Virus record (IMG/VR): IMGVR_UViG_2534682255_000020
Strand: one strand, 5' to 3'
Length of the DNA: 4,917 bases
From: a virus
Taxonomy: Duplodnaviria > Heunggongvirae > Uroviricota > Caudoviricetes
The notes below the pieces were generated by a model. It was not told the origin of the DNA and did not search any database. It saw only the letters and a program-made list of their open reading frames with translations. Each line of letters begins with the position of its first letter. The first letter of the stretch is position 1. The translations under genes and the position numbers were made by a program. This document shows, piece after piece, positions 1 to 4,090 of the stretch.

Positions 1-451
1 CGTTGTCGTAGCCGTCATGCAACACGCTCATGACATCGGACACGGTGACGATAATCACGCTTCTCCCCTTCGCCATCAGCCGATTGCCAATCGCTGCTGC
101 CAGGTGATTTTTACCGGTACCAGGTTTACCGCTGAACACGAAGTTTGTACATCCGGTCATCAATTCATCGGCAATGGATTTCGCCTGGCTCAGAGCATGG
201 CGCTGACCGTCGTTCTGCACCCGGTAGTTCCCGAATGAGCACTTCCTGTGAAGCGGCTGGATGCCCGCACGGTTCAGGATTTTTTCAACCCGCACCTGAT
301 GATTCAGGCGGTTAATCTCCTCGCTGCGTTTTCGTCCTTCAGCAAGTTGCCATTCCCGCCACTCCTCCACCGTCCGGTACGGTGGAACCGACGCCTGTGG
401 TGCAAGTCTGCGAATACGTTCAAGAACCCCGGCTGCCGCAATGTTTTTCAT
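1..451 (-). CDS. DnaC-like replicative helicase loader (AAA+), partial; C-terminus lies beyond the window start
   Basis: Minus-strand translation from ATG 451-449: MKNIAAAGVLERIRRLAPQASVPPYRTVEEWREWQLAEGRKRSEEINRLNHQVRVEKILNRAGIQPLHRKCSFGNYRVQNDGQRHALSQAKSIADELMTGCTNFVFSGKPGTGKNHLAAAIGNRLMAKGRSVIIVTVSDVMSVLHDGYDN. Walker A GKPGTGKNHLAAAI and the CSFxNYRV motif closely match my recollection of E. coli DnaC. A GGGGGTG SD-like sequence sits 7 nt upstream of the ATG. The gene lies 6 nt downstream of the replication initiator stop, the O-P-like arrangement. Not in the ORF track because no stop falls inside the window. Confidence 0.9.
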   Translation of the reverse strand, partial: MKNIAAAGVLERIRRLAPQASVPPYRTVEEWREWQLAEGRKRSEEINRLNHQVRVEKILNRAGIQPLHRKCSFGNYRVQNDGQRHALSQAKSIADELMTGCTNFVFSGKPGTGKNHLAAAIGNRLMAKGRSVIIVTVSDVMSVLHDGYDN

Positions 452-457
452 GCCACA

Positions 458-1549
458 TCACCCCCTGAATCCCGGCGGAATTTCGGTATCCGGTTCAGAA
501 ATATGATTCACACAACGCTGGTTGTTCGTGCCGCTTACCGGGAGCAACCAGGGGTTTTCAAAATTCCGGTCCGGCCCAAAAAACGTCGTCGCTCGCTGAA
601 CAAATTCCGTTCCCGCTTTCCCGGTCGCCGCCAGGTATCTCGCGTAACGCCTCACACCATCCAGCATGGTCTCTGGTGGCACCCCCTCGCGCAATCTGGC
701 CTTCCAGGCACTGAAAGCGGATTTCTTCGGGTTTGCCCCAGCACGCAACGGGTATTCCCGCCAGACCTGTTCGAACACATCCGGATAATCCACTCGTCCC
801 ACAGACTGCCCGGTGCTTTCCGGGACTACCCGATCGGCTTCCCGCTGAATGGCGGAATCGGCTTCAGGCTGCTGCAGTTGGTGTGATTGCTCCGACCCTG
901 CGGTCATCACCTGCTGCACAGCGCCCGAATCGGCTTCCGGTGTCGTGCCTGCTGGCTGACCAGGATTGACGGTCTGAACATCCCCTGCCTGGTTCGTGGT
1001 GTTTTTTTTGCCATGAACCATAGTGTTTTTGTCCTGTTCCTGTTCTTTCTCCTGCTCCTGTTCCTGTTCTTGGCTTCGAAGCCCCTTAAAAGCCCCTTCG
1101 AAGCCCCTTACCGAATTTCGGCTATTATTCCGCCTCACATCCAGATGGAAATCCGTTTTATATCTGTCGTAAAACACTGACAGAAAAGCGTTTTCAGGTA
1201 ATGATGCATACTCATTCCTGACACCTGCACAACGGTTATCGCCAGGCTTCAACGTTTCCCCAACCTGCCAGGCTGCCATTTCATGGACCCAGACCATCTC
1301 TGCATCATGGTCATAGCTACAAAAACCAGCTTCAACAGCCCTTTTAAGCCCCTTTGAAGCCCCTTCCAGACCAAGCCCGGTTTCATGAGCAAGGTATAAA
1401 ACTGGCAGGTAATACAAACCCAGCATATTTGCGTGAGGGGATGTCATCAGGTAAAAAGCAACAACTTGCGCTTCTGCACCCGCCTTTCTAAGTTCTCTCC
1501 CCGTTTCTCCCAGCCAGAATCGCGGAGAAACTTTTGCGTAATCACGCAT
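458..1549 (-). CDS. Phage replication initiation protein: YdaU/DUF1376-like N-domain, EQ-repeat linker, DnaT-like C-terminal domain
   Basis: ORF 458-1660 in the track; I place the start at the internal ATG 1549-1547 (MRDYAKVSPRFWLGETGRELR...), which has a GAGG SD 5 nt upstream, whereas the ATG at 1660 has none. The N-terminal region (SPRFWLGETG...AFYLMTSPHANMLGLYYLP) resembles the YdaU/DUF1376 family. The C-terminus ends ...CVNHISEPDTEIPPGFRG, close to the C-terminal tail of E. coli DnaT as I recall it (...VNTVSEPDSQIPPGFRG). Position immediately upstream of the DnaC-like gene. Confidence 0.8.
   Translation of the reverse strand: MRDYAKVSPRFWLGETGRELRKAGAEAQVVAFYLMTSPHANMLGLYYLPVLYLAHETGLGLEGASKGLKRAVEAGFCSYDHDAEMVWVHEMAAWQVGETLKPGDNRCAGVRNEYASLPENAFLSVFYDRYKTDFHLDVRRNNSRNSVRGFEGAFKGLRSQEQEQEQEKEQEQDKNTMVHGKKNTTNQAGDVQTVNPGQPAGTTPEADSGAVQQVMTAGSEQSHQLQQPEADSAIQREADRVVPESTGQSVGRVDYPDVFEQVWREYPLRAGANPKKSAFSAWKARLREGVPPETMLDGVRRYARYLAATGKAGTEFVQRATTFFGPDRNFENPWLLPVSGTNNQRCVNHISEPDTEIPPGFRG
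1034..1072 (-). repeat. In-frame CTG/TTC-type trinucleotide repeat encoding a QEQEQEQEKEQEQ low-complexity linker in the replication protein
   Basis: Plus-strand ctgttcctgttctttctcctgctcctgttcctgttcttg; minus-strand translation gives QEQEQEQEKEQEQ between the N- and C-terminal domains. Confidence 0.8.
1079..1109. repeat. Three tandem 11-bp iterons (CGAAGCCCCTT / AAAAGCCCCTT / CGAAGCCCCTT); candidate origin iterons inside the rep gene
   Basis: AAGCCCCTT at 1079-1087, 1090-1098 and 1101-1109, an exact 11-bp period, directly abutting the EQ linker and followed by a more AT-rich stretch (about 1111-1200). Confidence 0.55.
1337..1367. repeat. Second cluster of the same 11-bp iteron (CAGCCCTTTT / AAGCCCCTTT / GAAGCCCCTTC)
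   Basis: AAGCCCCTT at 1346-1354 and 1357-1365 with a degenerate copy at 1337-1345; same orientation and 11-bp period as the 1079-1109 cluster. Confidence 0.5.
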
Positions 1550-2289: not shown

Positions 2290-2715
2290 TTAATGCACAG
2301 CCAGAGTGTTTCCTGCCGGGCCACCACGATTCATCTGATCGAACAGAACGATCGCTGATGCAACGAAATCATCAATATCTTTCACCAGCCGTTCCTTCGT
2401 CTCTACCAACTCCCGAAAATAAGCGGAACTGTGGCTGCGCATTCGGGCCACCAGCGGAGGCGGCATCGCTTTTTCGATCGCTGGTAACAACGCCTGAATT
2501 TTTTTAACCGCATCAGGAGTGTCTTTCTCCACCCAGCGGAAAATTTTCTGAGTATTGCGAGCCATGGCTTCCGGATGGCTGTCGTCATACAGTTCCGGGA
2601 ACGTCATTCCCAGCTCGAAATACGCTTTGGTAATTTTCGCAGCCGGTACTTTTTCGCCGTCCGGATGCGCCCAGACATTCATCGCCATGCGGATGTGTTC
2701 ATGCTTGATTTTCAT
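2290..2715 (-). CDS. ydaT: YdaT-family protein (CII-like early regulator, sometimes annotated as toxin YdaT)
   Basis: 141-aa ORF beginning MKIKHEHI..., matching the N-terminus and length (about 140 aa) of Rac prophage YdaT as I recall it. Its ATG overlaps the stop of the upstream Cro-like gene (ATGA at 2715-2712). Confidence 0.8.
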   Translation of the reverse strand: MKIKHEHIRMAMNVWAHPDGEKVPAAKITKAYFELGMTFPELYDDSHPEAMARNTQKIFRWVEKDTPDAVKKIQALLPAIEKAMPPPLVARMRSHSSAYFRELVETKERLVKDIDDFVASAIVLFDQMNRGGPAGNTLAVH

Positions 2716-3014
2716 GAATCAACTCCATCAGATAAGCATGCACTACAATCACCTTCAGCATGAACTACATGTGTTTGCCCCAAACGAATGCCGCTCGCAT
2801 ACTCAGGCCAAATAAGCTCCCAATCATGGGGTCGTAGCTCCGCCCTACTTACTTGGCCTTCCGTCGCAGATTCGATCATAAGGGCGCGGGTTGGAGATAT
2901 AGCTGTTCGTCCAGACGCCATTTGCGATAAGTAAGATGGCGATACACCAAGTCTGGCCGCGAATTTCTTAGCATCACCAACCCTTAATGATTTAATAAAC
3001 TCTTTTAATGTCAT
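2712..3014 (-). CDS. ydaS: YdaS-family Cro-like HTH DNA-binding protein
   Basis: 100-aa ORF MTLKEFIKSLRVGDAKKFAARLGVSPSYLSQMASGRTAISPTRALMIESATEGQVSRAELRPHDW... with an HTH-like segment (AARLGVSPSYLSQMASGR). GAGGAAGG SD immediately upstream of ATG 3014-3012. First gene of the minus-strand operon, divergent from the regulator gene, as for cro. Confidence 0.8.
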   Translation of the reverse strand: MTLKEFIKSLRVGDAKKFAARLGVSPSYLSQMASGRTAISPTRALMIESATEGQVSRAELRPHDWELIWPEYASGIRLGQTHVVHAEGDCSACLSDGVDS

Positions 3015-3023
3015 ACCTTCCTC

Positions 3024-3090
3024 GGTTTAGTGTTTTTTTGCGAGTTTAGTGTTTAATAAACCATTAAGTCAAGTATTTGCTTGTTTAGTG
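3024..3090. promoter_or_regulatory. Operator-like direct repeats GTTTAGTG x3 in the divergent intergenic region
   Basis: GGTTTAGTGTTT 3024-3035, AGTTTAGTGTTT 3043-3054, TGTTTAGTGATT 3082-3093, arranged across the putative divergent promoters as in a lambdoid OR region. Confidence 0.5.
3043..3072 (-). promoter_or_regulatory. PR-like promoter for the ydaS-ydaT-rep-dnaC operon (-35 TTGACT, -10 TAAACT)
   Basis: On the minus strand: TTGACT (3072-3067), 18-nt spacer, TAAACT (3048-3043), followed by the leader and GAGGAAGG SD of the Cro-like gene. The -10 overlaps a GTTTAGTG operator-like repeat. Confidence 0.45.
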
Positions 3091-3105
3091 ATTACTAAAG
3101 ATAAT
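3077..3105 (+). promoter_or_regulatory. Candidate PRM-like promoter for the regulator gene (-10 GATAAT 3100-3105; weak -35 TTGCTT 3077-3082); possibly leaderless transcript
   Basis: GATAAT ends 6 nt before ATG 3112 and there is no SD upstream of that ATG, which would fit a leaderless mRNA as for lambda cI from PRM. The -35 is poor. Confidence 0.3.
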
Positions 3106-3111
3106 TACCAC

Positions 3112-3483
3112 ATGCAAAAAAAAGAAATTCGCCGTTTACGTCTCAAGGAGTGGTTTAAAGATAAAACTCTGCCACCCAAAGAGAAGAGCTACCTATCTCA
3201 ACTAATGAGTGGGAGAGCCTCGTTTGGAGAAAAGGCTGCCAGAAGAATAGAGCAAACATACGGGATGCCGGAAGGGTATCTGGATGCGGAATACGCAGAA
3301 CAACCGGGGGGTTCTCCACCACATGCAGGGTTAACGTCTAATCAACTGGAATTATTGCAGATTTTTTCAGCCTTCCCTGAGGATGAGCAACGCCAGATAA
3401 TCAGCGAGTTAAAGCAGAAAAAAGAATCAATGGAAGATCTCATAGCGAGATGGATTGCGGCGCAAAAATGCCGCCGCGCCTGA
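3112..3483 (+). CDS. paaR2: PaaR2-like transcriptional regulator (123 aa); first gene of the three-component TA operon and candidate prophage repressor
   Basis: ORF 3049-3483 (GTG start in the track); I prefer ATG 3112 (MQKKEIRRLRLKEWFKDKTL...). Contains an HTH-like segment (SYLSQLMSGRASFGEKAARRIEQTYGMPEGYLD). Lies directly upstream of the antitoxin and toxin genes, divergent from the Cro-like gene. Confidence 0.7.
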   Translation: MQKKEIRRLRLKEWFKDKTLPPKEKSYLSQLMSGRASFGEKAARRIEQTYGMPEGYLDAEYAEQPGGSPPHAGLTSNQLELLQIFSAFPEDEQRQIISELKQKKESMEDLIARWIAAQKCRRA

Positions 3484-3503
3484 GTTATAAAACCGGAGGA
3501 AAC

Positions 3504-3695
3504 ATGAATAGAGCCCTTTCACCAATGGTTTCTGAATTTGAAACCATTGAACAAGAAAACAGTTACAACGAATGGCTGCGTGCGAAAGTAGCAACGAGCC
3601 TTGCAGATCCGCGCCCAGCAATTCCCCATGACGAAGTTGAGCGCAGAATGGCAGAACGCTTTGCTAAGATGCGCAAGGAACGGAGCAAGCAGTAA
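3504..3695 (+). CDS. paaA2: PaaA2-type antitoxin (63 aa) of a ParE-family toxin
   Basis: MNRALSPMVSEFETIEQENSYNEWLRAKVATSLADPRPAIPHDEVERRMAERFAKMRKERSKQ; exactly 63 aa, charged and helix-prone, the length I recall for PaaA2. GGAGG SD 4 nt upstream of the ATG. Stop TAA 3693-3695 lies 1 nt before the toxin ATG. Confidence 0.8.
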   Translation: MNRALSPMVSEFETIEQENSYNEWLRAKVATSLADPRPAIPHDEVERRMAERFAKMRKERSKQ

Positions 3696-3696
3696 A

Positions 3697-3975
3697 ATGT
3701 TACCCGTGTTATGGCTTGAAAGCGCAGATACCGACCTAGATGATATAACTAGTTATATTGCTCGTTTCGACATAGATGCGGCTGAACGCTTATGGCAGCG
3801 ATTAAGGGGTTGTGTGCTGCCGTTATCCGAACATCCGTATTTATACCCACCAAGCGACAGAGTACCTGGCTTGCGTGAGATTGTAGCCCACCCTAACTAT
3901 ATAATTCTATACCGCGTAACAACATCAAGCGTTGAAGTAGTAAACGTGATCCACGCAAGACGCCAGTTTCCCTAA
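3697..3975 (+). CDS. parE2: ParE-family type II toxin (92 aa), ParE2-type
   Basis: MLPVLWLESADTDLDDITSYIARFDIDAAERLWQRLRGCVLPLSEHPYLYPPSDRVPGLREIVAHPNYIILYRVTTSSVEVVNVIHARRQFP; the C-terminal signature (GLREI...YRV...V.V.NVIHARR) is typical of RelE/ParE-fold toxins. Tightly coupled to the upstream antitoxin gene. Confidence 0.85.
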   Translation: MLPVLWLESADTDLDDITSYIARFDIDAAERLWQRLRGCVLPLSEHPYLYPPSDRVPGLREIVAHPNYIILYRVTTSSVEVVNVIHARRQFP

Positions 3976-3993: not shown

Positions 3994-4040
3994 ACATAAC
4001 AACCGCAACGACTTTATCAAAAGCGTTGTGTTTGTTATGT
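3994..4040 (+). terminator. Imperfect 17-bp stem / 13-nt loop hairpin downstream of parE2 (candidate terminator of the TA operon)
   Basis: ACATAACAACCGCAACG (3994-4010) pairs with CGTTGTGTTTGTTATGT (4024-4040) with one mismatch and one G-U. It starts 19 nt after the parE2 stop. There is no U-tract immediately after the stem; a T-run lies at 4052-4057. Confidence 0.4.
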
Positions 4041-4045
4041 CCCGC

Positions 4046-4090
4046 GGTTTAGTTTTTACTTGACTTAAGTTTAATGTTTATTAAACTAAA
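4046..4090 (+). promoter_or_regulatory. PL-like outward promoter and operator module (GGTTTAGT repeat, -35 TTGACT 4060-4065, palindrome AGTTTAAT-gttt-ATTAAACT 4068-4087, -10 TAAACT 4082-4087)
   Basis: This segment is a near-identical inverted copy of the PR-like module at about 3043-3075 (shared TTTAGT, TTTAATAAAC, ATTAA and TTAAGTCAAGTA blocks). It contains a perfect 8-bp-arm palindrome. Confidence 0.45.

Follow-up and report, generated by a model that had tools for sequence, protein, structure and literature searches.

Does a short motif repeated inside a phage replication-initiator gene echo a peptide repeated in the protein, or is it a DNA element in its own right and, if so, is it the place where replication starts? 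The question is raised by a stretch of 4,917 nucleotides (IMG/VR record IMGVR_UViG_2534682255_000020, class Caudoviricetes), hereafter called the window, which is identical to a segment of a lambdoid prophage present in hundreds of Escherichia coli O157:H7 chromosomes (annotated copy L001). A 9-bp motif recurs there at two places of the initiator gene, rep. The five copies are probably iterons bound by the N-terminal domain (N-domain) of the product of the very gene in which they lie, and with the surrounding DNA they would form an origin embedded in the initiator gene. The N-domain as binder, the firing of replication at this locus and the place of duplex opening are what we infer from the analyses reported below, the first two by analogy.

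On the plus strand the motif reads AAGCCCCTT, on the coding (minus) strand AAGGGGCTT. Five exact copies occur in the window, starting at 1079, 1090, 1101 and at 1346, 1357, and all fall inside rep, at nucleotides 441, 452 and 463 of the gene for the linker-proximal cluster (cluster A) and at 185 and 196 for the upstream one (cluster B). Allowing one mismatch adds no site in the window, and in 200 dinucleotide-preserving shuffles of the window exact copies averaged 0.06, with a maximum of one and no shuffle containing five. Period-11 arrays were reported by TRF at 1079-1110 and 1339-1365, along with a 6/18-nucleotide repeat, encoding a Glu-Gln (EQ) run, within 1024-1069, and a repeat finder assigned both clusters, 256 bp apart, to a single 42-nucleotide family. 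The three iterons at 11-bp phase which the initial annotation had placed at 1079-1109, inside the initiator gene, are confirmed as exact copies. Of the two or three copies that it had ascribed to the second cluster two are exact, and the third (1336-1344; coding strand AAAGGGCTG), which has two mismatches, sits at a 10-bp spacing and is not kept in homologues, was discarded.

The frames in which the copies are read were the first sign of an element acting at the DNA level. Being spaced by 11 nucleotides, the copies of cluster A hit all three reading frames (gtA AGG GGC TTc, GAA GGG GCT Ttt and AAG GGG CTT) and encode V-R-G-F, E-G-A-F and K-G-L, respectively; cluster B encodes E-G-A-S-K-G-L. 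A single 9-mer read in three frames cannot have a repeated peptide as its source, and the earlier remark that the iterons encode KGL/EGA repeats, correct as it is, understates the case. Cluster A corresponds to codons 147-157, in the interdomain linker, ahead of an exchangeable C-terminal module which starts at residue 171. The position next to the EQ linker, which had been likened to that of lambda-type origins, thus holds. The peptide encoded by cluster A is unstructured in the protein model, which explains why orientation and frame are free in this cluster. Cluster B coincides with the codons for the N-terminal half of the predicted recognition helix.

Homologues were compared at two depths. 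A close set is made of ten rep genes, the N-domain DNA of which is 64-94% identical, from the Shigella Shiga toxin (Stx) phage 75/02, phiSTEC1589, Klebsiella and Acinetobacter phages, Fraca, CharmingMan and LMessi (E. coli), Ralstonia phage NK-7 and E. coli M1. The pair at nucleotides 185/196 is kept in all ten, with one mismatch per copy in the Ralstonia phage, and two or three copies directly precede the linker in all ten. In four genes (75/02, phiSTEC1589, Acinetobacter and Ralstonia) the linker-proximal copies are flipped, with AAGCCCCTT on the coding strand, and encode E-A-P-S-E/K-P-L instead of E-G-A-S-K-G-L; position and 11-bp phase are the same. In this window, and in other Enterobacterales, both clusters have the same orientation.

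A wide set was obtained by scanning one genome per species, and includes 79 loci from gamma-, beta- and alpha-proteobacteria, Acidobacteriota, Planctomycetota, Legionellales, Gemmatimonas and others; statistics refer to 51 non-redundant sequences with mutual nucleotide identity <85%. A phased pair is present at the place of cluster B in 46 of the 51 loci, and at that of cluster A in 45. Nucleotides 150-600 of the genes, 22.8 kb in total, host 112 phased pairs, versus 6 in 287 kb of flanking DNA. We define as family-typical a two-cluster layout with a pair at gene nucleotides ~185/196 and two or three sites at ~430-470, followed by a low-complexity linker, and the window conforms to it. The initial annotation had regarded two clusters as a slightly unusual arrangement; they do differ from the lambda layout, and are the conserved norm of this initiator family. 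Both clusters are kept at the same gene positions and in the same 11-bp phase. Iteron number and orientation vary in cluster A, which usually has two or three sites, and up to eight, in either orientation, with a spacing nearly always of 11 bp. If copies showing AAGGGGCTT on the coding strand are denoted F, and those showing AAGCCCCTT R, the patterns are RR (22 homologues), RRR (10), FF, FFR and RFR (3 each), FFF (2) and others, and cluster A is inverted relative to cluster B in most homologues. A matrix anchored at the start of the linker returns two sharply conserved 9-mers, the central triplet of which is always GGG or CCC, separated by an essentially random spacer base, and as many as 49 distinct peptides are encoded by the cluster A region of the 51 homologues. 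The loss of the DNA repeat by synonymous change under a conserved protein, an outcome by which the initial annotation would have considered the origin refuted, is the reverse of what is seen: the repeat is kept, and the peptide changes.

Cluster B tells the same from the other side, as its peptide is conserved and its codons are nearly frozen. The motif columns are read from GAA at codon 62 (Glu, 46/46), GGG at 63 (Gly, 46/48), GCT at 64 (Ala, 44/50), AAG at 66 (Lys, 43/43), GGG at 67 (Gly, 43/48) and CTT at 68 (Leu, 49/51). Other conserved Gly and Leu columns of the same alignment employ all codons, with entropies of 1.65-2.4 bits. Normalised codon entropy is 0.13 in the motif columns versus 0.85 in the other 43 conserved columns (Mann-Whitney p = 5.7e-5). 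The lowest value outside the motif is that of codon 73, which is GAA in 43 of 44 homologues. Judged from these comparisons, selection acts on the DNA sequence of the motif and not on the encoded peptide.

The type of repeat changes along with the N-domain. In the subfamily L165-L169, with N-domains ~30% identical, the two-cluster layout is the same and the iteron is a different one, GAAAGGGTT / GGAACCCTT. The first codons of the recognition helix (E-R-V-E-K-G-F) contain two copies of GAAAGGGTT with a spacing of 11 bp, and GGAACC(C/G)TT is found two or three times, reversed, immediately before CGAAAC(CAGGAA)n. A GAAACCCTT-type motif occupies both cluster places in L164, a Bacillota metagenome-assembled genome (MAG). 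Seven E. coli phages match solely positions 460-1029 of the window, at 91-92% identity (megablast; the match ends at 1029). One of these, Tritos, shares with rep 90% identity over 201 C-terminal residues, from residue 171, just past the linker, and has an unrelated N-domain. The Tritos gene carries nine GTCACG hexamers against 1.19 expected (none of 200 shuffles reaches nine), five beside a DKDTDKDT linker and three ~260 bp upstream (L182, 2135-2181 and 2405-2441). Taken together, subfamily and Tritos data indicate that the repeat type follows the N-domain, not the C-terminal domain or the loader; the DNA element travels with the N-domain, by the same modular logic known for lambdoid O genes. 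As the Tritos layout goes with an unrelated N-domain, two clusters may be a general arrangement in several initiator families.

Further arrays were collected by scanning viral contigs for four tandem copies of the 9-mer. The scan yielded members of the rep family with four or five copies, and L171, a remote homologue by hhalign (97.5%), which lacks the upstream pair and has its four copies reversed, ahead of a KEKEKE linker. It also yielded a short protein ending in five to eight AAGGGGCTT copies at 11-bp phase (L173 4962-5014, L174 3643-3728, L177 793-845, L179 1322-1374), in which no similarity to the rep N-domain was detectable. The arrays of the latter type run straight into very AT-rich polypurine DNA (AGGTATAGTATAGTATATATTAG...AAAAGAAAAG), the classical picture of iterons next to an AT-rich tract.

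Where sites lie in whole genomes could be followed in two complete phages. All five exact 9-mers of Acinetobacter phage B1251 (45 kb) reside in rep or its 58-bp leader, and all three of E. coli phage Fraca (44 kb) in rep, so that among the exact 9-mers of these two genomes there is no second origin copy away from the gene. A particular case is found in L146, a contig from a Burkholderiales MAG, in which a truncated and frameshifted copy of rep nucleotides ~125-560 lies at 1425-1900, 1.5 kb upstream of an intact rep. In this copy the upstream cluster has expanded to seven tandem iterons, the linker cluster has the pattern FRRR, and a long (GAACAR)n run is present. It is known from a single metagenomic contig, and may represent either a stray second origin or an artefact of assembly.

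The rep product has 363 residues. The mechanical open reading frame (ORF) 458-1660 is 37 codons too long, and the likely start is the ATG at 1549 (M38 of that ORF), where all family profiles and homologues begin. The profile phrog_1701 matches over its full length (E 1.3e-148, residues 38-400 of the mechanical ORF), phrog_25210 matches the N-domain (E 2e-114), and PHROG 6251, annotated as replisome organizer DnaA-like, gives a weak match (E 1.8e-4). No Pfam family was hit by rep at E <= 0.01, and no domain of Pfam or NCBIfam by its N-terminal part. The N-domain family is nonetheless large, with 4075 matching representatives in a library clustered at 50%. In the AlphaFold2 model (pLDDT 83.8) the N-domain is a winged helix, with alpha1 at residues 25-36, a beta strand at 45-47, alpha2 at 49-57, alpha3 at 60-73 and a beta-hairpin wing at 77-88; the fold extends to about residue 130-142, and the model shows disorder at 143-160. 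The last 24 residues (window 458-529) weakly resemble the C-terminus of the primosomal protein DnaT (NF002770, E 0.0019). Such resemblance, together with the DnaC-like neighbour, accounts for the annotation of homologues as primosomal protein I. The DnaT-like tail and the DnaC-like next gene echo the dnaT-dnaC gene pair of the host. Features of the gene and its surroundings are collected in Table 1.

Table 1. Coordinates of rep, of its sites and of adjacent genes in the window.
Feature	Position	Strand	Basis or remark
DnaC-like helicase loader gene, 5' part (cut by the window end), directly downstream of rep	2-451	-	Pfam IstB_IS21 3e-8; PHROG 50 2e-41
rep, replication initiator gene, 363 residues: N-terminal winged-helix domain (predicted), EQ linker, C-terminal domain with DnaT-like tail	458-1549	-	PHROG 1701; RefSeq coding sequence of 1092 nucleotides
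A-rich segment (coding strand) and imperfect palindrome (A8/T8 loop), beyond the EQ run; start of the exchangeable C-terminal module	990-1033		hairpin and T run (plus strand) 990-1020
(GARCAR)n hexamer run, EQ linker, rich in purines (coding strand); may belong to the DNA element	1034-1069	-	TRF
rep N-domain coding region (residues 1-160), predicted winged helix	1070-1549	-	recognition helix residues 60-73; residues 143-160 disordered
Phased half-site AAGCC (codons S-Q), between last iteron and hexamer run	1072-1076	-	in an anchor matched by 36/51 homologues; S159 invariant in alignment A1
Cluster A (linker-proximal), three exact iterons (1101-1109, 1090-1098, 1079-1087), 11 bp apart	1079-1109	-	three frames; encoded peptide disordered
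Spacer between clusters, 236 bp	1110-1345		includes the most AT-rich part of rep (1120-1240)
Possible phased half-site GAAGC (codons E73-A74), 33 nucleotides after the first cluster B iteron	1329-1333	-	weak, inferred
Cluster B (upstream), two exact AAGGGGCTT (1357-1365, 1346-1354), 11 bp apart	1346-1365	-	encodes E62-L68, start of the recognition helix
YdaT/cII-like gene	2290-2715	-	
YdaS/Cro-like gene	2712-3014	-	

A plausible course of events can be sketched. After derepression the initiator would be made, and its N-domains would occupy the phased sites at 1079-1109, and the pair located 256 bp upstream (1346-1365), with one domain for each helical turn. Protein-protein contacts might then bridge or wrap the ~236-bp spacer to give an O-some-like complex, and a nearby tract, of low stability or rich in purines, would open, be it the (GAACAG)n run with the A-rich tract (990-1069) or the region 1120-1240. 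Recruitment of host DnaB and of the DnaC-like loader encoded next to rep would fall to the C-terminal domain, which bears the DnaT-like tail.

The scheme may be pushed further. The recognition helix would be encoded by a pair of its own sites, so that helix and iteron are locked to each other; the two clusters, which oligomers of the initiator would bridge into a ~250-bp loop, would be the opening complex; and the (GARCAR)n run would serve as an unwinding or single-strand track, as DnaA-trios do beside DnaA boxes. If true, helix-iteron dual coding would explain why the same 9-mer is found from Enterobacteria to Acidobacteriota and Planctomycetes, and why helix codons and distal iterons have changed jointly in the diverged subfamily. 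We regard this extended version as tentative and rather doubtful.

The sequences around the sites give a mixed picture of where DNA might open. The AT-rich stretch which had been noticed beside the first cluster is present, with a GC content of 0.35-0.42 at 1120-1240 and 0.40 at 1000-1059, compared to ~0.5 overall; it is modest, and does not rank among the least stable DNA of the window. The signals being so modest, no DNA unwinding element (DUE) is named. The hexamer run begins 6 nucleotides past the last iteron in 36 of the 51 homologues, and is read as QEQE in 36 as well, a few using other frames or KE runs. A palindrome similar to that at 990-1033 is carried by Tritos, and lambda ori likewise has a palindrome beyond its AT-rich tract.

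Several observations weigh against an origin at these sites. No strong AT-rich unwinding element adjoining them emerged from composition, nearest-neighbour stability or the AT profile of the family: by nearest-neighbour stability the least stable 40-mers of rep are unremarkable within the window, and the AT excess averaged over 49 homologues is just +0.05 to +0.10. DnaA-box matches are at chance level. The synonymous (third) positions of the EQ run vary freely (GARCAR) and, along with the prevalent QEQE reading, this means that the run may be a protein linker alone; as a DNA element it was set aside. The distance from the last cluster B site to the last cluster A site is 255 or 267 bp in most homologues, and the inter-cluster distance modulo 11 is 2-3 in 34 of 44 loci, but constant spacing may reflect ancestry instead of selection; as a small number of ancestral indel states could yield it, the helical register between clusters is not used as evidence. 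L171, which has a quite different recognition helix, and the apparently unrelated L173-type proteins carry the same 9-mer, and both cases accord poorly with a simple specificity linking helix to iteron. Last, two or three additional sites in phase, of operator-like appearance, directly precede the rep start codon (-37/-26/-15) in Acinetobacter members. They form a third cluster ~220 bp before the recognition-helix pair, and have been found in L180 (B1251; 5611-5630) and, at -37 to -15, in L103, L116, L118, L119 and L131.

These leader sites speak for a different function, namely that the motifs are operators for the autoregulation of rep, at which the initiator or another regulator would act by roadblock or looping repression, the true origin being elsewhere in the prophage. 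The mutual inversion of the clusters in most homologues recalls the inverted iterons used by plasmid Rep proteins for autorepression, and the lack of a clear AT-rich unwinding element beside the sites fits as well. Yet most members of the family, the window included, have no site near the promoter, pR-like signals lying ~1.5 kb upstream. Like the origins of lambda and SPP1 (PMC7466680, PMC6316719), the main cluster is placed at the interdomain linker, no alternative origin-like cluster exists in the two complete phage genomes, and related arrays do run into strongly AT-rich DNA. We consider it unlikely that the sites are operators with the origin elsewhere; the two roles are in any case compatible, and the same sites may serve both.

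Still less probable is that the units, which are semi-palindromic (GAAG-SSS-CTTC), act as hairpins in mRNA or single-stranded DNA, or pair into an inter-cluster helix, to control translation or to signal priming. In the common F...R arrangement the clusters are complementary at ~20 of 22 nucleotides, the arms change symmetrically between subfamilies (AAG..CTT to AAA..TTT), and the O157 segment folds better than shuffled sequences (z = -3.3). The long-range helix is however removed by the same-orientation clusters of the window and other Enterobacterales, and single-orientation and single-cluster arrays occur (L157 and L173 type). Local hairpins are not conserved, spacer bases being random, there is no relevant Rfam match, and a strict 11-bp phase is to be expected of sites bound on one face of duplex DNA.

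That the repeats are the by-product of an EGASKGL-like peptide repeat or of linker slippage, or a "linker DNA" aiding module exchange by recombination, is scarcely credible, for although E-G-A-S-K-G-L is found at both places in some homologues (Klebsiella, Fraca), a mosaic junction falls right at the EQ run, and the latter has no synonymous constraint, a pure peptide-repeat explanation is contradicted by the three frames of the window copies, by inverted copies encoding EAPSKPL and the like, with the resulting variety of peptides, and by the synonymous freezing of cluster B, besides which disorder is predicted for the peptide of cluster A, the iteron varies with the type of N-domain even though recombination has its junction on the C-terminal side, and extragenic and frameshifted copies retain the motif.

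The genes around rep fit a lambdoid replication region. In the order of transcription, the minus strand encodes a YdaS/Cro-like protein, a YdaT/cII-like protein, the initiator and the DnaC/IstB-like loader. The plus strand carries a DicA-like repressor and a PaaA2-ParE toxin-antitoxin pair. Together they make a paaR2-paaA2-parE2-like module at 3112-3975, in the prophage immunity region, composed of a DicA-like helix-turn-helix regulator, the antitoxin PaaA2 (Pfam E 1e-19) and the toxin ParE (E 2e-16). Operator-like GTTTAGTG(T/A)TTA repeats flank the repressor-toxin block on both sides (3037-3099 and 4047-4086), accompanied by inverted arms (3051-3074 / 4063-4086), and may be operator sets of the OR/OL type; a pR-like promoter match is located at 3072-3043. 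Immediately 3' of the parE stop lies a hairpin (3994-4040) with 22-nucleotide arms, 82% complementary, and a 3-nucleotide loop, which is the sole Rfam hit of the window, a chance match to a miRNA model (E 0.27).

Between rep and the YdaT/cII-like gene two ORFs face each other, at 1628-2083 on the plus strand and 1767-2276 on the minus strand, with an overlap of 317 nucleotides and family support for both. For the plus ORF the match is to the ECs1072 family (NF033230, E 2e-30), for the minus ORF to phrog_8304 over its full length (E 4e-120), and both are intact in the E. coli locus L183, which is 89% identical. Substitutions favour neither frame in the overlap; outside it there is a third-position excess for each ORF.

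Neither an origin of the rep family nor the 9-mer was found described in the searchable literature, which omits most subscription-journal papers. The top-ranked matches of a full-text search for AAGGGGCTT, AAGCCCCTT and EGASKGL were unrelated, and papers on the replication regions of non-lambdoid Stx phages make no mention of iterons or an origin. If the sites are indeed an origin, this would be located for a large and unnamed initiator family, which lacks a Pfam model and comprises ~4,000 clusters at 50% identity. Members reside in O157:H7 prophages, in certain Stx phages from Shigella and E. coli, and in Acinetobacter and Klebsiella prophages; through the O157 prophages and Stx phages the family is of medical relevance. 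The array of 9-mers would provide a simple sequence signature to annotate such origins, and cloned origin copies might serve to interfere with prophage induction. The same 9-mer in three frames and both orientations is also an unusually clean instance of dual coding, which may be exploited as a benchmark for methods detecting DNA-level constraint in coding sequences.

How the putative origin relates to known systems is best seen starting from lambda. Lambda ori is made up of iterons and an AT-rich tract, midway through gene O, and iteron number varies among lambdoid phages, from 4 in lambda to 6 in Stx phages (PMC7466680). As in lambda (PMC7466680), the candidate origin is part of the initiator gene and falls where a DNA-binding N-domain (predicted as such in rep) meets a C-domain that recruits, or in rep would recruit, the helicase loader. 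Other shared traits are repeated sites for the initiator (here predicted), variable in number, which make with the N-domain an exchangeable specificity module, and the gene order cro - cII - initiator - loader. Unlike lambda, rep is not an O homologue, as it has no Pfam match, and its partner is DnaC-like, not lambda P. Lambda iterons are ~19 bp long, dyad-symmetric and set in one block, whereas the rep sites are 9 bp long, at 11-bp phase, in 3 + 2 copies forming two clusters 256 bp apart. Orientation of the rep sites is free, moreover, one cluster lies within recognition-helix codons, and the adjacent AT-rich tract is weak.

The resemblance to SPP1 is of the same kind. SPP1 oriL is located within gene 38, a second copy, oriR, is found elsewhere in non-coding DNA, and the AT-rich DUE is clear (PMC6316719). 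Both systems have direct repeats inside the organizer's own gene, bound in SPP1 by G38P, and a separate helicase loader, and a second, non-coding copy of the origin, as that in SPP1, may be compared to the orphan copy of L146. In contrast to SPP1, rep has no detectable relation to the Pfam replisome-organizer N-domain, the two complete phage genomes of the rep family have no second copy, and no AT-rich DUE is evident.

Plasmid iterons measure ~17-22 bp, are not part of the rep gene and are usually accompanied by DnaA boxes, and inverted copies serve regulation. The initiators of these plasmids, such as pPS10 RepA, R6K pi and the RepA of a multiresistance plasmid (PDB 4pta), are winged-helix proteins, as rep is in the AlphaFold2 model. 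Rep differs in having an 11-bp unit, coding sites and DnaA boxes at chance level. In ParR-parC of plasmid R1 and in TubR-tubC, one protein unit per helical turn binds repeats of 11-12 bp to build a continuous nucleoprotein filament, and TubR is a winged-helix protein as well. The latter arrays are partition centromeres, placed beside par or tub genes, whereas the rep array is found in an initiator gene beside a helicase loader, without partition genes. The element thus seems to work like an origin of the lambda or SPP1 type while belonging to neither family, and the principle of an origin embedded in the gene of its initiator, which it would follow, is a textbook one.

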